Origin: Escherichia coli
GTDB lineage: Bacteria; Pseudomonadota; Gammaproteobacteria; Enterobacterales; Enterobacteriaceae
Reading direction: 5' to 3' (one strand)
Length of the DNA stretch: 64,000 nt
Assembly: GCF_044324785.1 (NCBI RefSeq)
Contig: NZ_CP172127.1
In this document: piece after piece, positions 23,955 through 34,574 of the stretch
How positions within the stretch are numbered: position 1 is the first letter of the stretch
How the letters are laid out: each line of letters begins with the position of its first letter
Program-made: the position numbers and the translations under genes
Notes under the pieces: model-generated
What the model was told of the DNA's origin: nothing
The model's input: the letters and a program-made list of their open reading frames with translations, nothing else
The model's database searches: none

Positions 23955-24468
23955 AGTTTAGTAAATCTTTACGTTAACTAAATCAGTTTAATGCTGCTGT
24001 AAAACCTTTCTGTTTAAGCAATCAATCTGCTATTCGATTTTACTGATGTTACGTTTAACCTTTCCTTAGATTTCGAGTTTCGACGTTAGCTTGAGAAAAG
24101 TATCTTTACGTAAAGCCCAGTGAATTAACTCAAATCCGATTGAGGTAACCTGATGCGATTTACTGTGAGTTTGCGATAACACTGTTAAATGGCTTATGGA
24201 TGATTTTGTAACGGCGAGATTGATAAGGTGATTAACTGGCCCTGGTGTTTTTTCTCAGCGTAAGGTGATTATCTTCATCATAAGGCTCTTTTCAGAAAAA
24301 GTGTGATGATTGGTTGTGGTGTTTTGATTCAGATGAGGATCTGCCAATGATTATGATGTATTGTAAGAAATAACGCCTTCAGAATGTTGGAGCATGCACT
24401 TACACAAACTGTTTTTCTAAAATTAAGGGAACAGTTTAAAGAGTATAAACTGTTCATCTTCTTCAGGA

Positions 24469-24999
24469 TTAAGCTACATTGTTGTTATGACTGACAGGAT
24501 TGTTTTCTTCCCCTGACTCTGGGCTTAACAGTCCCTGGCGTTGTAGATATTCACTGACTGACATTCCAGAACTACGGATCCTGTCAGAGATTTTACGAAA
24601 TTGATCCTTCCATTCTGCAGGTAATTTCTTAATTTGTCTGACTTTACAGGCTACACTGTACGGGGTTCGCCCTAGTTTCTCTGCCAGCCAGAAAAGGTGT
24701 TTACCAATTTCATCGTCCGGTACATCCTCCAGAACATCTCGCAATAAACTCTCGTCTGCCTCATTCCATGCCACACCAGCATTTGGGAAACGAGGATCGA
24801 TCTCTCTTTCCTTCTTCTCCTTCTTACTTTGCTCTTTTCGGGATGATACAGATACGACAGAACGTTCTTTTACCGCTGTAATTGCCATAACTGCATTGAG
24901 CAGAGATCTGCGCTCCACATCGTTCAGCATTTTTCCTTCACAGATCAAATCATTCAGGATGTCAATGACTAGATTCAGACTTTCTTCTGTTAGCTTCAT
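24469..24999 (-). CDS. Hypothetical protein, possible DNA-binding (helix-rich, acidic and basic patches)
   Basis: 176-aa ORF; ATG at 24999 with AAGG upstream; 10-bp perfect inverted repeat just 3' of the gene. Confidence 0.5.
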   Translation of the reverse strand: MKLTEESLNLVIDILNDLICEGKMLNDVERRSLLNAVMAITAVKERSVVSVSSRKEQSKKEKKEREIDPRFPNAGVAWNEADESLLRDVLEDVPDDEIGKHLFWLAEKLGRTPYSVACKVRQIKKLPAEWKDQFRKISDRIRSSGMSVSEYLQRQGLLSPESGEENNPVSHNNNVA

Positions 25000-25668
25000 A
25001 TTTCAGACCTTGAAGTATGTAGATAATCAGCACAATTACTAATGTGATAAATATCAGAAGATAATTTACAGGTAAACCGGAAAATACATCTGAAGAATAA
25101 AGGCCTCAGCTTAACGTTTCAGCCAGTTTGTGAGCTGATTGAGGTACGGCGATGACATTAACGGGAATTACTCCCCTATAGCTCTGAGCTTATTTTTCAC
25201 CCTGGCAACATATGGTGGCTACTGCGCATGGTTTTGGAGTAGATATCTTACTACTCGTAGAATTGTGCTTACTGGTCAGGCCAGCGCACAGGCATTCCGT
25301 GCAATCAATAGAACACTGGTTTTTTAGTCTTCCGTTACCCATCAGGATGTTAGTGCAGATTCCGGTGTATTCGATCAGTTGTTCGGCGAATCAGCGATCG
25401 ATCACGATGCGATTTCGTATGTTAGGGATGCTGGTATGATTACTCGCTGAAAAATAATGTGAAAAGGCAGTTTTTCTTTAGACATTTAGCTCATTCATGC
25501 TGTTGTTTTACGTTTTGCTGTCGTGTGCAGGATTATCTTTTCGTTACGGGACGATTCATTCCGTTTTAATCAGGAGCTATTGGCGTTGCTCATTGGTGGG
25601 ATGCCGTAAAGTTTTACCGCGGCGATTAATGATGTGAAGTCAATCCAAATCAACGGAGATCTCTCATC

Positions 25669-26400
25669 ATGAATCAACCAATACACAATGATTACTGGTT
25701 ATCCCGTTTTGAAAGTATTCTCAACAGTGCCCTGGTGCAACACCGTGCCGTCTCGTTAATCCGGGTGGATTTACGTTTCCCTGAGCATATGCCTGTCACC
25801 ATCATGGATCCCGATCCGGATTCAGCGGTGATTTCTCGTTTTTTCGAATCCCTGAAAGCCAAAATTCAGGCTTACCAGCGGAAAAAACGACGTACCAACA
25901 AGCGTGTGCGTGCAACCACCCTGCATTATTTCTGGTGTCGGGAGTTTGGCAAGGAAAAAGGCAGGAAACATTATCACGTGATATTACTGCTCAACAAAGA
26001 TACCTGGTGCTCGCCAGGGGATTTCACCGTTCCTTCTTCGCTGGCGACGCTGATCCAACTGGCATGGTGTAGCGCTCTGCATCTTGAGCCCTGGCAGGGT
26101 AATGGACTGGTTCATTTTTCCAGGCGGACGCCTTTCCGTAAACCGGCATCATCTGATGCTCGCCCTTCTTCCGATGATACGCCTTTGTCGGGTGGATGTT
26201 CTGAAACCAGGAAGGCTTCAGACAAAAAGCCGGGTGAAGCCGCTGTTCTCTGGATCAAGCGTGGTGATGTGGAAGCGATGCAGAAAGCCATGGAGAGAGC
26301 CCGTTATCTCGTGAAGTATGAGACGAAGCAGCATGACGGTTCTGGTCAACGTAATTATGGTTGCAGCCGTGGAGCGGGGCGTCTACTGGATGGCAGGTGA
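25669..26400 (+). CDS. Gp2/YagK-like family paralog (HYHV motif)
   Basis: 243-aa ORF; RKHYHVILLLNKDTWCSPGD; ACGGAGAT upstream of ATG. Confidence 0.5.
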   Translation: MNQPIHNDYWLSRFESILNSALVQHRAVSLIRVDLRFPEHMPVTIMDPDPDSAVISRFFESLKAKIQAYQRKKRRTNKRVRATTLHYFWCREFGKEKGRKHYHVILLLNKDTWCSPGDFTVPSSLATLIQLAWCSALHLEPWQGNGLVHFSRRTPFRKPASSDARPSSDDTPLSGGCSETRKASDKKPGEAAVLWIKRGDVEAMQKAMERARYLVKYETKQHDGSGQRNYGCSRGAGRLLDGR

Positions 26401-26726
26401 ACCCTGTAAAAAGGCATCCGGTGCCAGAGTATATGTCACAGTAAGGGCGTGGTTGACGCCCTTAGCTCGTTTTCTGAAAAAGTCGTCCTGAAGTCATGCA
26501 ATGTTTCCTGGTTTTCATGCATCCATCATTTGTCGCTGCGATGCCAGACTTCTGGATGCACACATGTTGTTTTACTTTTGTCAGCATCATAAATGCGCCG
26601 GGACTGGTGAATGGAGATAAGCCATTTTATTATCGACGTCAGCGAACATACTCACCATGCCGGTATGTTCCTGAACTGAACAATAAGTTTTGCGCTGATT
26701 ACAGTATGTGAAGGAGGTCCGTTACA

Positions 26727-28331
26727 ATGAATTCCGCTTATATGCAATCCTTGCAGACATCCCACCACTTCCCAGCTGATTTAACCTACAGATTATTTCC
26801 TAGTGAGCTTGCATATCTCATTGACGACTTATATGAAAGTACCCAACTTCCGCTGGAGCTCATTTTTAATACTGTACTGGCAACGCTCTCACTCTCCTGT
26901 CAGTCACTGGTTGACGTTGTTCATCCTCACACCAACATGCCGGAACCCTGCTCACTTTATCTGTTGGCAATCGCAGAGCCAGGCGCGGGAAAAACAACGA
27001 TAAACAGACTGGTGATGAACCCCTGTTACGAATTTGCCGATCGACTCATTCAACAATACGAAGAGAGAAACAAAGATTATAAGACTGAACTACAGATCTG
27101 GAATACCCGGCAGAAAGCGCTTGCTGCCAATTTAAGAAAGGCTGTTAACCGGGGGTATCCGGGGGAACAGGAAGAAGAGGCGCTGCGTAATCACGAAAGA
27201 AATAAACCGACACGTCCGGTTCGACCGAATTTTATCTATGAAGATGTTTCGCTTAAAGCGCTTGTGGAAGGGCTCAATGAACATCCTGAGGCAGGGGTTA
27301 TTTCTGACGAGGCGGTCACTTTTTTCAGAAGCTATCTGAAAAATTATCCGGGCCTGTTGAATAAAGCATGGAGTGGACAACCGTTTGATTTTGGACGGGC
27401 TGACGAGAAATACCATATCACGCCACGTCTGACATTTTCGTTAATGTCCCAGCCGGATGTCTTTACGAATTATATAAATAAAAATGACGTACTGGCGTGG
27501 GGAAGCGGATTTCTTTCCCGGTTTCTGTTCAGTCAGACCGGAAGTCCTTCCCGGGTACGGGATTATACGAGAGGCGAGTTCAGAACAAAACCAACCCTGG
27601 AGAAGTTTCATAAAAAGATTAACGGATTTCTGTTAAGCCATAACATTAATTCCCCCGGTATGAGCACCGAAAGGAAAACATTAAAACTTGCAAAGAAAGC
27701 GTTGGGGGAGTGGCAGGAAAACCAGATTAAGATTGAAAGAAAAGCGCTTGCAGGAGGGGAGTGGGAACACATCAGAGATATTGTTCTGAAAGCAGGTTCT
27801 AATATACTGAGGATAGCTGGAATATTCACCTGCTATTGCTATAAAGATGCTGAGGAAATTGAATCAATTGCGCTTTTTAAAGCTATGCATCTCATGGACT
27901 GGTATCTGGAGGAGGCGAGCACAATATTTTATCCCATGTCTGCACGATGCCAGTTTGAACAGGATGCCTGTGAACTGTATGCATGGATTATGACCCGAAT
28001 AAGGCAGAATAATTGGCGTGCTATCAGGAAAACAGACATTGAAAGATATGGTCCCAATCGTCTGAGAAGAGCAGAAAAACTTACACCTGTACTCAATCAG
28101 TTAATCGCTCAAAATTATTTCCGTATCATCAAGATGCGATCGCATCAGGCACTTTATGTTTCTGCTCTTGATAATAATGGTTACATCCTTCCTTTCGGCG
28201 CAATGTCTTACGAACCGTTTGATATTGTTCCACCCCAGTATAACCATAATGCGAAAACATATTCCGTTGTTATTCCACCGGCATTAATTCAGTCATTTAC
28301 ACCTGATTCCTCAGCTTACACCTTATTTTAA
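26727..28331 (+). CDS. YfjI-like P-loop protein (DUF3987-like), putative NTPase
   Basis: 534-aa ORF; Walker A AEPGAGKTT; strong SD GAAGGAGG. Confidence 0.6.
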   Translation: MNSAYMQSLQTSHHFPADLTYRLFPSELAYLIDDLYESTQLPLELIFNTVLATLSLSCQSLVDVVHPHTNMPEPCSLYLLAIAEPGAGKTTINRLVMNPCYEFADRLIQQYEERNKDYKTELQIWNTRQKALAANLRKAVNRGYPGEQEEEALRNHERNKPTRPVRPNFIYEDVSLKALVEGLNEHPEAGVISDEAVTFFRSYLKNYPGLLNKAWSGQPFDFGRADEKYHITPRLTFSLMSQPDVFTNYINKNDVLAWGSGFLSRFLFSQTGSPSRVRDYTRGEFRTKPTLEKFHKKINGFLLSHNINSPGMSTERKTLKLAKKALGEWQENQIKIERKALAGGEWEHIRDIVLKAGSNILRIAGIFTCYCYKDAEEIESIALFKAMHLMDWYLEEASTIFYPMSARCQFEQDACELYAWIMTRIRQNNWRAIRKTDIERYGPNRLRRAEKLTPVLNQLIAQNYFRIIKMRSHQALYVSALDNNGYILPFGAMSYEPFDIVPPQYNHNAKTYSVVIPPALIQSFTPDSSAYTLF

Positions 28332-28930
28332 AACAATTTTGTGAGTAGAAAACGAAAATCATAATCCTTCGAATGAAGGTTGATGATAAGGTGTGTTGCA
28401 TATCCTGCACCTGTGCAAATATTCACCAATTATTGGGTGTGAATGAAAATTTCTCTGAAAAAATCGCTATGGTAGCAACAGTAGCAGCACATACACTACA
28501 TCTGTGATTTGGTTTTGTTTTCATAATGACCTGCTGTCAGAGCTGATTGAATGCTGGGATGTGCGCACTGGTGGAAGAGTGGTTTTCGTTTCAGATATAA
28601 CGAAAGGCAATCGAAAGATTGTTTTAAACATGGATTAAAGCTAATCATTAACCATATTGTGTGAGTTTTTATATATAAGTTTGTTTGATTCTTGCCGTGA
28701 TGAGTGCTGGGGTATATGACGATGTCGCTCTCTTTCTGAATAACAAATTATTATTCGTCTGTTACTGATAAGGGATGCGATTCATGTTTTAATAGATGGT
28801 TGAAGAAAATTAATTTGATATTTTTTTTGTAAGGGAATGGAACTGTCCGGAATATGTTCAGAACGGCGGATTTCTCATTTCCATTCATTAAACATGGATA
28901 ATTTTAATTTAGGTTTATTACTATTATTAT

Positions 28931-29047
28931 ACTCACTCCCTTTTTGATATAATCTCTATTGTTATTTACTTCCTGTCTTTACTCACTCCCTTTTTCATAC
29001 AATCTCTATTGTTATTTACTTCCTGTCTTTACTCACTCTCTATCTTT
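28931..29047. repeat. Tandem 50-bp direct repeat: two copies plus a partial third
   Basis: 28931-28980 and 28981-29030 differ at 2 positions; partial third copy ACTCACTCTCTATCTTT. Confidence 0.7.
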
Positions 29048-29920
29048 ACGATTATATTCACTCTATCGTTACACATTCCATTAGTATTACTCTTGTTATC
29101 GTATTCATTCCATCCCTCAATCATATTTACTGTAACTCATATGATGTTCAGGTAAGTTATTCTCTACCATTCTACTGATGATATTCATCTGTTCTCATTT
29201 TCACTGAAACAGCAATTAATTTTAATCTTATCCATCATGAGCTGTATTTTCTTAACAATGGTTGTTTATCTGAAGTGTTTTAACTATTCTGATGAACATC
29301 AATTCTTTTGTCATTACTGATTAACCGAATGTTTACTTTTTGATAAGGTATCCATGATTCTGTAACGATTAACAGAGCTGGATAAACAATGGAATTGACA
29401 GGAGAGATTCCTGATTATGTTTGTTCTGGGTTGTATTATCTAAGATGCAGGATGAAAATCATGTCAGTGGTATTTTTTATTCTGCTATCGTGAGCCGTGA
29501 ATGTTCATGTCCTTAAGAACAGATTGAATGAGCGCATATAAGTTTATTGCATTGGCCTTGTACACAGTTTTTACAACCACTGAGAGCAAGTTTGTAGTTT
29601 ATGATGTGATTGGTCGCAATATGTTTCTTAACCTTCTGGACGTGGTGTTTTATCGCGTATTTACAGTATTTCGTGATGTTTTATTGAGTCTGTATTTTCT
29701 TTACTCCTCGTTTATCTCATCTCTTTAGCTAATACCATCAGATAATCCATTTCTTTCTGCATAATGCTGCGTATCGTTAATAACCCGTCGTATCCATTCT
29801 GCTACAGCATGCCTGATAAATACCATCTGTAAGTTATTACCGTTTTAGATCTGATTATGAGCGAAAGCATTAATTCGTTCACAGAGCTTAAAACATCATT
29901 AACTTTCAGGAGTCATCAAC

Positions 29921-30487
29921 ATGCCTAAATCTTACACACCAAACTGGTTTTTTACCGCTTTACTTGACAATCACATCAATCAAATGATGGCACGCTATTC
30001 CTGCCTGCGGGCCTTACGGATGGATTTCTTCTACAGGAAAGATACGCCTGATTTCTTACAACCTGATCATCGCTGGCTTGAATTGCAGTTGCGTATGCTG
30101 CTGGAGCAGGTGGAACAATTTGAAAATATCGTTGGTTTCTTCTGGGTGATTGAATGGACGGCTGATCATGGTTTTCATGCGCATGTGGTTTTCTGGATCG
30201 ATCGTCAGAGGGTTAAAAAAATATATCCCTTTGCGGAGCGGATAGCGGAATGCTGGCGGTCTATTACGCATAACAGCGGTTCGGCACACCGCTGTACATA
30301 TCAGCCGCATTATACATACAACATCAACATTCCTGTGCGCCACAACGATCCTGAAAGCATCGATAATATTCGCGGTGCCCTGCATTATCTGGCAAAAGAA
30401 GAGCAAAAAGACGGGCTGTGTGCCTACGGCTGCAATGAAGTTCCTGAACGTCCTGCTGCAGGGCGTCCTCGTAAGCCTCACTTCTGA
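29921..30487 (+). CDS. YagK/YfjJ-family protein (inovirus Gp2-like)
   Basis: 188-aa ORF; HGFHAHVVFWIDRQ H-x-H motif; paralog of ORF at 798. Confidence 0.65.
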   Translation: MPKSYTPNWFFTALLDNHINQMMARYSCLRALRMDFFYRKDTPDFLQPDHRWLELQLRMLLEQVEQFENIVGFFWVIEWTADHGFHAHVVFWIDRQRVKKIYPFAERIAECWRSITHNSGSAHRCTYQPHYTYNINIPVRHNDPESIDNIRGALHYLAKEEQKDGLCAYGCNEVPERPAAGRPRKPHF

Positions 30488-30744
30488 AGCTTAAATCCTG
30501 AGCTTCCTGTCCTGGAAACACTCCGTCGGTAAAAACTTACCGCCTTGCTTAATGATGTGAACTGAAGTCAACGGAGATCATTCACTCTGAACCACATCCG
30601 GTGTTCTGTCCCTTGTCGGTGACCTGATCTTCCCGTTCTGCCCCGGTTCTTCACTTATTCCATCAACCCCATCCGCAAACCATAACACGTCAGCTTATTC
30701 ACGGGCAGGACGCATTGTGGGCTGCGCATAACGGAGCATATCTT

Positions 30745-31305
30745 ATGAATGCTATCCCTTATTTCGACTATAGCCTGGCCCCCTTCTGGCCATCTTATCA
30801 GAACAAAGTCATCGGCGTCCTTGAGCGTGCGCTGCGTGAGCAGTCCGGCTCACGGATACGGCGGATCCTGCTTCGTCTGCCGTGTGAATATGACAATACC
30901 TTCAACAGCAGAACGACCTGGTTTGGTATGGATTTTATCGAAACCGTCAGTGCGCTGATGAATGCAACACCCGGACGTGACCTTTGCTGGCTCCTGACCC
31001 GTCATCCTGAAAAACCGGAATACCATGTGGTGCTGTGCGTCAGACAGGAGTATTTCGACGGCCCCGAACTGGATCGGTTGATTCTGGATGCCTGGAGTAA
31101 CGTGCTGGGTTTCGCGTCACCAGGTGAAGCAAAGCCGTACCAGAAGCAGATCACCCGGGATGTGGTACTGGATCGCCGGTCACCGGACTGCGAAGCCCTG
31201 TTTAAGGACCTTATCTGGGCGTTCAGTGATTTCGCCCGCGATCGCCGTGGAGTGCGCGATCCGGAAGCCCGTTGCCTCGCCGGTAATCCCGGTTGGCAGT
31301 GCTGA
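30745..31305 (+). CDS. Gp2/YagK-like family paralog
   Basis: Track ORF 30715-31305; PEYHVVLCVRQEYFDGPEL aligns to the H-x-H region of the 25669 paralog; start Met uncertain. Confidence 0.45.
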   Translation: MNAIPYFDYSLAPFWPSYQNKVIGVLERALREQSGSRIRRILLRLPCEYDNTFNSRTTWFGMDFIETVSALMNATPGRDLCWLLTRHPEKPEYHVVLCVRQEYFDGPELDRLILDAWSNVLGFASPGEAKPYQKQITRDVVLDRRSPDCEALFKDLIWAFSDFARDRRGVRDPEARCLAGNPGWQC

Positions 31306-31373
31306 AAGCAGCATTCCATCCCATACCTCGTATTACCCCATTCTTCATCAATCTCACAGAGGATATTCTGACC

Positions 31374-31607
31374 ATGTTGACCACAATAAGCCACGACAGC
31401 GTGTTGCTGCGTGCCGACGATCCCCTGATCGACATGAACTACATCACCAGTTTCACCGGCATGACCGATAAATGGTTTTACAGGCTGATCAGTGAAGGTC
31501 ATTTCCCTAAACCCATCAAACTGGGGCGCAGCAGCCGCTGGTACAAAAGTGAAGTGGAGCAGTGGATGCAGCAGCGAATTGAGGAATCACGAGGAGCAGC
31601 AGCATGA
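31374..31607 (+). CDS. alpA: AlpA-family transcriptional regulator / excisionase-like HTH protein
   Basis: Internal start of track ORF 31293-31607; MTDKWFYRLISEGHFPKPIKLGRSSRWYKSEVEQWMQQR matches the AlpA pattern. Confidence 0.7.
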   Translation: MLTTISHDSVLLRADDPLIDMNYITSFTGMTDKWFYRLISEGHFPKPIKLGRSSRWYKSEVEQWMQQRIEESRGAAA

Positions 31608-31696
31608 AACGTGTTGTAATGCCAGTACGCTGGCAATGTGCGAAATGCCGGCGCTGGTATTGTGGAAATCAGCCCTGTCCCTGGTGCTGGCGCTGA
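31604..31696 (+). CDS. Unannotated 30-aa Cys-rich putative zinc-ribbon peptide
   Basis: MKRVVMPVRWQCAKCRRWYCGNQPCPWCWR; ATG overlaps the alpA stop (ATGA); below the 60-aa ORF-track cutoff. Confidence 0.35.
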   Translation: MKRVVMPVRWQCAKCRRWYCGNQPCPWCWR

Positions 31697-31836
31697 CAAC
31701 TCCCGCTCATCTTTCTGCTGGCACCCTCTGGCCAGCCAACTGTTTGTCATCATTTCCTGACTGATTCGTCATTCCCTTCGTCCCGCCAGTCACTGGTGTT
31801 TGTATCGTACCGTGCCGGTGTCGATGTGCGCTTTCC

Positions 31837-32433
31837 GTGTGTCTGGTCTGCACCGGCTTAACAAAATTCAACGGGGATAAAATAGTGCAAATAACCGAAG
31901 CCTTACTTTCAGCGCCGGGGGAAATCCGGCGTTTTGTTCAGCAGGCGGTGGACCACTGGCCAAATCTGTTGGCATTTCACTTCACGCTCCATTCGGCAGA
32001 AGGAAACATCAACGGACAACAGATTCATGCATTCTGTACTTCCTTTTACCGACAGGTGCACGAGCGTATTACTGAACGTAATCACACGGCCAGTCCAGCA
32101 CCACCGGTGGTATTACGCTGGTTGCGGGAACAACATGGAGGAGCAACAATGCGATGCCTGTTGCTGCTCAGCCAGACGAGCATTTGCCATCCACGGGTCA
32201 GTGCCACGGTTGATGAAGAATGTTCGCAACGGGTGGATTTATTGCAACAGACATGGCGGGTGATAAGTGCTGACGGACAATGCCGGGTGGAAAGGTGTTT
32301 TCAGGCTGCCCGGGGTGATACATCCGGCCAGTATATTGCGTTAAAAACAGTTGCATTGTCTCTGGGGTTACCGGTTGTGACCGGTATTACCCATCGCCCG
32401 GTACAGCGCTGTACATTGATTACAGCTCAGTGA
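31837..32433 (+). CDS. Hypothetical protein, possibly a further divergent Gp2/YagK-like paralog
   Basis: 198-aa ORF; LLAFHFTLHS and MRCLLLLSQ segments loosely align with other paralogs; start may be GTG at 31885. Confidence 0.35.
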   Translation: MCLVCTGLTKFNGDKIVQITEALLSAPGEIRRFVQQAVDHWPNLLAFHFTLHSAEGNINGQQIHAFCTSFYRQVHERITERNHTASPAPPVVLRWLREQHGGATMRCLLLLSQTSICHPRVSATVDEECSQRVDLLQQTWRVISADGQCRVERCFQAARGDTSGQYIALKTVALSLGLPVVTGITHRPVQRCTLITAQ

Positions 32434-32450
32434 ACAGCGCTGTTGTGCAG

Positions 32451-32753
32451 TCAACGAGGTTTTCTGTCTTTTCGTCGGTCATTCAGCATCATTAAACGGG
32501 TCTCTGCCTCTTTCTGTTCCTGTGGTGTCACTTCCCCGCACGGCTGACCGTTCAGGTTGTAACGGGCGCCACCTGCTATTAACGCACGGTAATAGCGCGG
32601 AGACTGCACATAAGACGCCACTGCTGCATGTAATGTACCAGCGCCAAACGCCAGTTCTCGGATGGCGATATCCTGTATCAGGTCGTCAGGTATCCCCACT
32701 TTAAGTGGTTTTGTTTTTTTCCCGGTTGAATGACTCAGGCCAGAGTTCCACAA
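32451..32753 (-). CDS. Hypothetical protein
   Basis: 100-aa ORF; no family recognised; may be one frame-disrupted gene with 32768-32962. Confidence 0.3.
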   Translation of the reverse strand: MWNSGLSHSTGKKTKPLKVGIPDDLIQDIAIRELAFGAGTLHAAVASYVQSPRYYRALIAGGARYNLNGQPCGEVTPQEQKEAETRLMMLNDRRKDRKPR

Positions 32754-32767
32754 GACGAATAATGCGC

Positions 32768-32962
32768 TTACGGTTTTTGCTCTGGCGTTTTGTCATGTCG
32801 CCACGGTGTTTTATCAGCAGGTTTCTGTTTATCGTTCAACTGTGGTATCTGGTCACCGGCCTTCATTTTGTATGCTGTGTCCGTTTTATTCTGCAGCGGC
32901 GTTGCCGGTGATTTACTGAAAATACCCTGCGGTTTACGGTTAATGGTCAGAGTTACCATCAA
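32768..32962 (-). CDS. Hypothetical small protein
   Basis: 64-aa ORF directly upstream of 32451-32753 on the same strand. Confidence 0.25.
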   Translation of the reverse strand: MMVTLTINRKPQGIFSKSPATPLQNKTDTAYKMKAGDQIPQLNDKQKPADKTPWRHDKTPEQKP

Positions 32963-33554
32963 TTTTGTTACCTCGCGCTGTCAATGGAAGTAGTACCTCA
33001 TCCGATATCTGAAAATGTTTTCCGGTGGATGTTACAGCGAATTTCATGTAAGACATGTTGTTGTCGGTATTGTTCAGTACTGTGCGTTGTGAGCGTATTC
33101 GTTATCAGACAGAGGGGCAGGGAACAAACGTCAGAGGTTAAGGATATCCGGGAACAAATGGCGTAAACGGACATCTCAGTGCCTGAGAAACAGTACAGGT
33201 CAGGCCATCATGGCCTGCAAACAGAGCCCTGGCGACCCCGTGGCCGAAAACGAAACAATAACCCGCGCGCAGTGCGAGGAATCCGGATGTGAAGCAATCA
33301 GCAGGTAATATTAATGGCAGGACCAGCAGGTTCTTTAAACAAACGAACATGCTGTAATTGATATTTTGCTTATTGTATTTTCTTTTTAGTTATTAAATTA
33401 ATTTATTTACGAAAAATTTTCTGCAGATACAGGATGGGAATTCAGGGTGTCATCACGCCTTATGATGACACCCTTCCCCTGGTTGTGGAAAACCGAAGGA
33501 TATATCAGGTTCAGCAACAAAATCAGTGAGCTGAAAGATACCAGTCCCCCAGCT

Positions 33555-34574
33555 TCAGCAGCTTTCACGTAAACATAAACAGGGCTCAATGAATATCTGA
33601 TTGCTCCAGTTACCTTCTTTAATTCGTTCCAGCAAAACATTTCCTGCTTCCAGACCAATTTTCCTGTGAGGAACGGCCATTGTTGTTAATGATGGTTGGC
33701 AAACTTTGCTGACGTCACTGTCACCAAATCCTACTACGGCGAGCTCGTCTGGAACTTTGATCCGTCTTCGTTGACATTCATAGAGAACACCGCAGGCTAA
33801 CTCATCTGACACACATACCAGGGCATCCAGTTCCGGCCATGCGAGCAAAAATTCCGGTAGTTGTGATGCTCCGGTGGAAAAAACAGGTGGCAGAGCAGCG
33901 TTAATAACACGGTTGGGAGACATATGATGGCGTAACATAGCTTTATACCATCCCTGTAAATGCTGCTGAAAGATCCACTGTTCCTGGTTAGCGCATAGCA
34001 AACCGATATTCTGATAACCACGTTGTACCAGCATATCCGTCAGCTCGAACATTGCTGCAACATTATCAATACCAATGTTGATATCTATCGGATCAGTACG
34101 AATGGCACCGATTTCTATAACAGGAATCGAGGCATTTTTGAGCAAGTGACGCACGGTACTATTATGCTCAACACTAAGCAAAATTGCTGCAGCGATATTA
34201 GAAGCCAGCAGGGTTTCCAGCAGTTTTTCTTCTTGTTCCAGACGATGGCGTGACTCAGCCAGGATTATTTGATACCCCGCTGGTTGTAGCACATGTTGCA
34301 GCCCGGCAAACATTTCCGTGCATCCCGCTTCAGCCAGGTTTGGCACGACCATTGCGATCGTGTGTGAAGATGCCGATGCCAGTGCGCTTGCAGTGAGGTT
34401 GGGCATATACCCTAATTCATTAACTGCGGCTTCAATCTTCTCCCTCAATTTATCTGAAACTTGTTCGGGAGTGCGTAACGCTCTGGATACAGTCATTGTG
34501 CCAACTCCCGCGAGTTGCGCGACATCAGCAATAGTGACTTTACCTGTACTACGACGTTTTCGGGTTATTGCCAT
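33555..34574 (-). CDS. LacI/GalR-family transcriptional regulator
   Basis: N-terminal HTH VTIADVAQLAGVGTMTVSRALR followed by a periplasmic-binding-like sugar domain. Confidence 0.8.
   Translation of the reverse strand: MAITRKRRSTGKVTIADVAQLAGVGTMTVSRALRTPEQVSDKLREKIEAAVNELGYMPNLTASALASASSHTIAMVVPNLAEAGCTEMFAGLQHVLQPAGYQIILAESRHRLEQEEKLLETLLASNIAAAILLSVEHNSTVRHLLKNASIPVIEIGAIRTDPIDINIGIDNVAAMFELTDMLVQRGYQNIGLLCANQEQWIFQQHLQGWYKAMLRHHMSPNRVINAALPPVFSTGASQLPEFLLAWPELDALVCVSDELACGVLYECQRRRIKVPDELAVVGFGDSDVSKVCQPSLTTMAVPHRKIGLEAGNVLLERIKEGNWSNQIFIEPCLCLRESC

Follow-up and report, generated by a model that had tools for sequence, protein, structure and literature searches.

Repeats and base-composition tracts in bacterial intergenic DNA can be compared with several kinds of described systems. 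Slipped-strand VNTRs and intergenic tandem duplications consist of head-to-tail copies whose number varies between strains, with a short repeat flanking the one-copy form and many small duplications nearby. The iteron arrays of SaPI/PICI satellites and plasmids are also direct repeats, with units of ∼6–22 bp in AT-rich non-coding DNA beside replication-type genes. Extended −10 (TGnTATAAT) sigma-70 promoters can function even without a good −35 element. Finally, rut sites, at which Rho is loaded, are C-rich, G-poor stretches of unstructured RNA of ∼70–80 nt or more with little sequence conservation, and Rho together with H-NS silences foreign DNA in E. coli. Here we describe a 50-bp repeat in the spacer of a CP4-57-like island of E. 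coli and set it against each of these systems.

The repeat lies in a contiguous 64-kb stretch of E. coli DNA, which is referred to below as the window. Between positions 27000 and 31000, TRF reports a single array at 28930–29038 with a period of 50, 2.2 copies, 96% matches, no indels, and a score of 204. The two complete units are identical at 48/50 positions in a repeat search, the two mismatches being G at 28946 versus C at 28996 and T at 28950 versus C at 29000. The junction between the copies reads CTGTCTTTACTCACTCCCTTTTT, and the nine bases directly 3′ of copy 2 (29030–29038) are TACTCACTC. By a rough estimate, the chance of adjacent 48/50 identity in a 64-kb window is below 1e-10, so the array is far beyond chance. 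The ATG of the yfjJ-like gene (29921) lies 883 bp downstream of the array, and the GC content around it is 0.275–0.315 in 200-nt windows. These values bear out the initial annotation, which had placed a tandem 50-bp duplication at 28931–29047, in AT-rich DNA about 0.9 kb upstream of a yfjJ-like gene; its coordinates deviate from the computed array by just 1–9 bases. We read the repeat as a recent, lineage-specific 50-bp tandem duplication and not a conserved array, most likely near-neutral and located in a composition-constrained tract, and we put the probability of this reading at about 0.72. The features discussed below are collected in Table 1.

Table 1. Positions in the window of the repeat units, the surrounding tract and leader, and the neighboring genes
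Feature	Coordinates	Strand	Basis
YfjI-family gene, DUF3987, predicted replicative helicase, 534 aa	26727–28331	+	PF13148, E 1.7e-74
Sharp left boundary of the conserved module	28872–28886	.	local blastn, 95 loci against the window
Conserved AT-rich left anchor, GATAATTTTAATTTAGGTTTATTAC	28897–28921	.	mean column conservation 0.97, no gaps, 54 alleles
Hypervariable tract, pyrimidine-rich and G-poor, holding the repeat	28922–29121	+	54-allele alignment
Repeat copy 1	28930–28979	+	extra unit relative to all close relatives; repeat search and alignments
Repeat copy 2	28980–29029	+	same as the single unit of the closest relatives; YJ4 alignment
Old decayed third unit	29030–29084	+	MAFFT of unit variants; aligns along the whole unit
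Conserved non-coding leader	29122–29920	+	conservation 0.73–0.99, few gaps, 54 alleles
188-aa YfjJ/YagK-like HUH protein, RefSeq "inovirus-type Gp2"	29921–30487	+	PF23343, E 1.6e-5, and PF11726, E 1.3e-4; both slightly under the gathering score

The copy number was compared across relatives. Used as a query, the 1,589-bp gap between yfjI and the yfjJ-like gene has matches in 1,571 of 5,426 complete E. coli genomes, 328 of which match at least 80% of the gap. The best 30 matches are 99.4–99.8% identical and span 1538–1541 bp in two pieces, which means that 50 bp, and hence one copy, is missing. When strain YJ4 is aligned with the window, the missing 50 bp correspond to exactly one unit, so that copy number is 2 in the window versus 1 in the YJ4-type form at 99.8% flank identity; a 421-bp query gave the one-copy result again, further down the ranking. 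Two junction-specific queries found the copy 1/copy 2 junction in none of the 5,426 complete E. coli genomes. All best matches to a 71-nt junction query fall into two pieces over 59 bp, while the best matches to a 42-nt query that excludes the polymorphic site described below are 95.2% identical and represent alleles with a unit followed by a degenerate second unit.

One intact unit each is present in the 474–519 unit-carrying complete E. coli genomes and in ∼45 metagenome alleles, and some alleles have no unit; taken over the 5,426 complete E. coli genomes and ∼75 metagenome or MAG relatives, the maximum is one intact unit. Scanning metagenomes for the conserved left anchor recovered 80 loci, and 75 metagenome and fetched genome loci reduced to 42 unique tracts, among which two intact units occur in the window alone. 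The same anchor was found in 2 MAG contigs among 100,044 species-representative genomes and had 0 matches in a scan of viral contigs; in its exact anchor form, the element is essentially restricted to E. coli. The strain comparison proposed in the initial annotation therefore does reveal variation in copy number, both between the window and YJ4-type strains and through the older birth, decay, and loss of units described below. This variation is unlike that of a working array, since two intact units are confined to the window. Conserved number and spacing would be expected among relatives if the units formed a regulator-binding array, as had been suggested; the relatives carry one unit or none, and the reading as such an array is accordingly not supported.

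The same comparison weighs on an iteron or binding array of a replication origin, in which the units would be bound by the DUF3987 helicase or by the HUH Gp2-like protein, as at the SaPI/PICI origins downstream of rep or in the Ff intergenic region upstream of gene II. The location is suggestive. The gene order is a 243-aa YagK/YfjJ HUH gene (25669–26400), yfjI, the 1,589 bp without genes, and the 188-aa yfjJ-like gene, so that the array sits between a predicted replicative helicase and a HUH Rep-like gene with intact motifs (HUH, HAHVVF; Tyr, HYLAK, both in the translation). The YJ4 homologue of the former is annotated as "YfjI family protein" in RefSeq, and DUF3987 proteins have been predicted to be replicative helicases (PMC4889955, PMC5862659). 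The recurrence of the motif TCACTC (∼2.8 occurrences per allele) and the AT-rich region would also suit an origin, and with iteron arrays the locus shares direct repeats in AT-rich non-coding DNA beside replication-type genes. However, the unit is 50 bp long, there are two copies in this strain only, and number, spacing, and sequence are not conserved among relatives; within the region, conservation is lowest in the tract. Moreover, the linkage of yfjI and the repeat does not extend to other islands, and most contexts of the module are without yfjI. A pC194/phiX-like TTGATA motif is preceded by a variable base (G, C, or T), and inspection of the window allele's sequence gave no conserved DnaA-box-like element. 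We consider an origin array very unlikely.

The single units of relatives indicate where the two copies came from. Copy 1 carries what we call the G allele, with TGATATAAT at 28945–28953, and is found neither in YJ4 nor in any other best match; copy 2 carries the C allele, TCATACAAT, which is the form in most genomes. Variation in the unit centers on an 8-bp polymorphic site with the linked haplotypes CATACAAT (most alleles), GATATAAT, and TATATGAT or ATATGAT, and the remainder of the unit is nearly invariant. As a single copy, the G allele (65 nt) is present at ≥99% identity in at least 95 complete genomes, including O157:H7 86-24, and all 60 matches listed in that search are 100% identical. 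Both copies thus match old, widespread alleles, from which we infer that the array is not a duplication that later acquired two new mutations. The modules most similar to that of the window (YJ4, L030, and L022, with at most 5 differences per ∼800 nt) all have a single C allele, and among alleles complete enough for a leader comparison the G-form modules differ from the window at 86 or more positions. In one locus, L061, the G form occurs next to a left flank that matches that of the window at 99.5% identity. Single-copy natural alleles of both parental types with the same flanks therefore exist: L061 represents the left parent and YJ4 the right. We note that, besides the 50-bp copy, the only YJ4 differences in the module are at 29659–29663, a single-base deletion within a T run and, 4 bp from it, an A/G change, and that the leader alignment consists of block-wise haplotype mosaics, which are typical of recombination.

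In the one-copy form of YJ4 and other alleles, TACTCACTC stands at the start of the unit and again directly after it. Mispairing of these 9-bp repeats would yield exactly a 50-bp head-to-tail duplication. The event was probably slippage or unequal exchange, in either case with recombination between two alleles or paralogous island copies, and the window would then represent an L061-type left parent and a YJ4-type right parent joined out of register. Alternatively, a slippage duplication may have formed first, one half of which was later replaced through allelic recombination. A 9-bp microhomology is short for an exchange between two molecules, so two or more steps, slippage and then allelic recombination, may have been involved. 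High-identity head-to-tail copies, a short flanking repeat, a difference in number between near-identical strains, and many small duplications nearby are all features of slippage-made tandem duplications and are all found here. The locus is unlike slipped-strand VNTRs in that the array is not multi-allelic, with two intact copies in one source only, and in that the copies carry different pre-existing alleles, which implies recombination besides slippage.

The correspondence of the two copies to two natural alleles, in an arrangement found nowhere else, could also reflect an assembly artefact in which reads from a G-allele island and from a paralogous C-allele island were joined into a spurious tandem; an E. 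coli genome can hold up to 5 copies of the module. Collapsed paralogues would, however, be expected to produce bubbles or chimeras and not a clean in-register 50-bp insertion with perfect flanks. Outside the array, the region matches YJ4 at 99.8% identity and contains no further anomaly, and the tract is prone to genuine duplications in other alleles. We regard an artefact as the least probable of the readings weighed here.

Behind the two intact copies lies an older unit. The partial third unit of the initial annotation is present, and it proves to be the beginning of a decayed full-length unit reaching to about 29084. It opens with the 9-bp TACTCACTC, the same 9 bp that flanks the one-copy form, and a repeat search finds within it an imperfect 23-bp duplication (CTCTATCTTTAC / CTCTATCGTTAC) belonging to the window/YJ4 lineage; STEC388 and MSB1_8B are without these 23 bp. 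Alleles of the PRO_A type have a better preserved, though degenerate, second unit, and in some alleles only that second unit remains. Taken together, the decayed third unit and the PRO_A-type second units indicate that units have been repeatedly duplicated, decayed, and deleted in this tract.

The tract itself is prone to such changes. A conservation profile from a MAFFT alignment of 54 unique module alleles gives it a gap fraction of 0.33–0.98 and a conservation of 0.0–0.5, the unit itself excepted, which makes the 200 bp holding the repeat the part of the region most prone to indels. Over 42 unique alleles the anchor-to-anchor length ranges from 127 to 256 bp, and other alleles contain small tandem duplications of their own (11 bp × 2.1–2.3, 6 bp × 2, 7 bp × 2, and 13- and 18-bp units). 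A coding reading of the tract was rejected, as its short ORFs are disrupted by indels of 11, 13, 23, and 50 bp among alleles, in agreement with the non-coding location first assigned to the repeat.

Composition is retained where sequence is not. Across alleles the tract is 22% A, 28% C, 4% G, and 45% T, and all 42 alleles have a C/G ratio of at least 4.5, with a core of 74–203 nt. In the 64-kb window, the tract has the strongest C>G skew of any 200 nt on the + strand and ranks second in absolute skew (99.7th percentile). The minimum free energy of its RNA is −5.8 kcal/mol over 201 nt, equal to that of shuffled sequences, so the lack of structure follows from composition. These observations suggest to us a tract constrained in composition (C-rich, G-poor, and unstructured on the coding strand over at least 74 nt) and not in sequence. 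With composition kept and sequence not, the extra copy is most likely a near-neutral change in length; this is our best guess, drawn from the non-conservation of the tract. Even in the absence of selection, repeated duplication of CT-rich seeds could lead to this composition.

Any function of the tract would most likely depend on its composition, and could be that of a Rho-loading (rut-like) insulator between variable cargo and the yfjJ-like leader. A C-rich, G-poor stretch of at least ∼70–80 nt and little RNA structure are both found, the composition persists in 42/42 alleles while sequence and length change, and, as in rut sites, the flanking genes are encoded on the strand that is rich in C. 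The likeness is a resemblance read from sequence; the tract could be rut-like by its composition, and an insulator role could follow.

A different kind of function is raised by the 8-mer. Copy 1 may add a consensus extended −10 element (TGATATAAT, 28945–28953) with a start at ∼28960 directed toward the leader and the yfjJ-like gene, in which case the two-copy allele would have tandem −10-like hexamers, TATAAT and TACAAT, 50 bp apart and an altered expression; such a gain of a promoter is compatible with an origin by slippage too. The match is perfect over 9 bp, and TGNTATAAT in copy 1 is the only perfect extended −10 consensus within the 64-kb window. Most unit alleles have a −10-like hexamer at the site (TACAAT, TATAAT, or TATGAT), and the polymorphism is focused on precisely this 8-mer. 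On the other hand, the one match observed in the window compares with 2.36 expected by chance, no acceptable −35 accompanies the copy 1 element, and a consensus promoter and terminator scan of 28300–29950 returned no + strand promoter, with a count under the shuffle expectation. At least one allele has TGTAAT, missing the key A, the distance from the left anchor to the 8-mer varies among alleles, and, with the G allele already common as a single copy, the duplication brings nothing new to nature. Judged from sequence, a gain of promoter function is unlikely, though it deserves weight beside the preferred reading of a near-neutral duplication.

The repeat belongs to a module with its own borders. 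In local blastn comparisons of 95 loci with the window, homology starts at 28872–28899 in more than 60, whose upstream 1.6 kb differs from that of the window, and at least 10 distinct contexts precede the module. The sharp start of homology below unrelated upstream DNA indicates that the repeat is part of the leader of the 188-aa gene, not of yfjI. This leader of ∼1 kb is always together with the 188-aa YfjJ-like HUH gene, irrespective of upstream content, and its last 125 bp before the gene are almost invariant (conservation ≥95%). Indels in the leader are not multiples of 3. A structured non-coding RNA in the leader was considered and rejected: RNAalifold on 31 leader alleles found compensatory changes in 6/155 pairs, with a covariation term of −4.6 kcal/mol, and a search of 24000–34000 against Rfam at E up to 1 gave three sub-threshold chance matches, none within the tract. 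For the 188-aa protein, searches that also covered its neighbors found no PDB structure and no NCBIfam model match. Downstream, homology to the window continues to ∼33349 in many loci, at least 4 times the leader length, as based on loci whose blast matches chained cleanly. The backbone block was also considered as a mobile element and rejected; its borders (∼28877 and ∼33349) are sharp and have no terminal direct or inverted repeats.

Several further elements of the module were observed. A 23-codon uORF at 29857–29928 (ATGAGCGAA...CATGCCTAA) lies in another frame, ends 5 nt past the ATG start of the yfjJ-like gene, and includes the AGGAG ribosome-binding site of that gene. The segment is nearly invariant in 31 alleles, with an in-frame TAG in one (L096), and could encode a leader peptide or simply be conserved 5′ UTR. 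The 10-mer GTAAGTTATT occurs exactly at 29152–29161 and 29829–29838, in the two stretches of the leader where conservation is highest: one copy falls within a conserved hairpin-like segment just after the tract and the other lies ∼90 bp before the gene; by a rough estimate, the recurrence is not significant for 1.6 kb of AT-rich DNA. A second short sequence, TTAAACATGGAT, is present exactly at 28624–28635 and 28888–28899 and in inverted form (11/13) at 28780–28792. The third of these copies, at 28888–28899, falls on the conserved left border of the module, and the sequence could be a protein site or a short homology that joined modules.

The module is set in an island whose backbone, according to the annotation of a relative, comprises an integrase, CbtA/CbeA, RadC, an antirestriction gene, and a GTPase. 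The two distinct HUH genes (YagK/YfjJ, Gp2-like) on either side of yfjI have the same orientation; the 243-aa protein (25669–26400) has the motifs HYHVIL and RYLVKY and no NCBIfam model match. Upstream of the leader, the slot is variable (26727–28870 in the window, with a counterpart in loci L012, L046, L103, and L004) and elsewhere holds a TIR-domain gene, remnants of IS481, IS21, and IS256, dsdA, or an H-NS paralogue beside a restriction enzyme. The slot resembles a hotspot for cargo or defence genes, and its border at ∼28877 is sharp. A second cargo border is at ∼33349 (compared with loci L001, 14022–19540, and L103, 9288–10065). Past it, YJ4 and O157:H7 86-24 have a dndBCDE phosphorothioation cluster, and the window has a LacI-family regulator (33555–34574) and other genes. 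In K-12, the yfjI–yfjJ gap is ∼150 bp and the yagL–yagK gap ∼270 bp, with no counterpart of the long gap; these short gaps indicate that the leader is missing in K-12, and that K-12 transcript maps are not transferable. The literature on yfjI, yfjJ, yagK, and Gp2 yielded no functional study of this region.

Overall, the repeat is most likely an unremarkable tandem duplication, private to this strain, in an E. coli island spacer that is prone to slippage. By itself, the duplication is minor, a private 50-bp indel that can be used as a strain marker. As a pointer, it marks a hypervariable, composition-constrained tract exactly between variable cargo and conserved backbone, and the spacer and the conserved leader behind the repeat are more interesting objects than the repeat. 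It is conceivable, though improbable, that the ∼1-kb leader and the small HUH gene in the backbone block, with the G-poor tract at their opening, form an undescribed cis-element in which the birth and death of units and switching among TGATATAAT, TCATACAAT, and TATATGAT tune the entry of transcription or Rho termination, or on which the HUH protein acts on single-stranded DNA; if so, the two-copy allele would be a functional expression variant. The backbone block occurs in ∼29% of complete E. coli genomes. Should the tract control transcription into the backbone, it would help to explain how these common islands are silenced or switched on.
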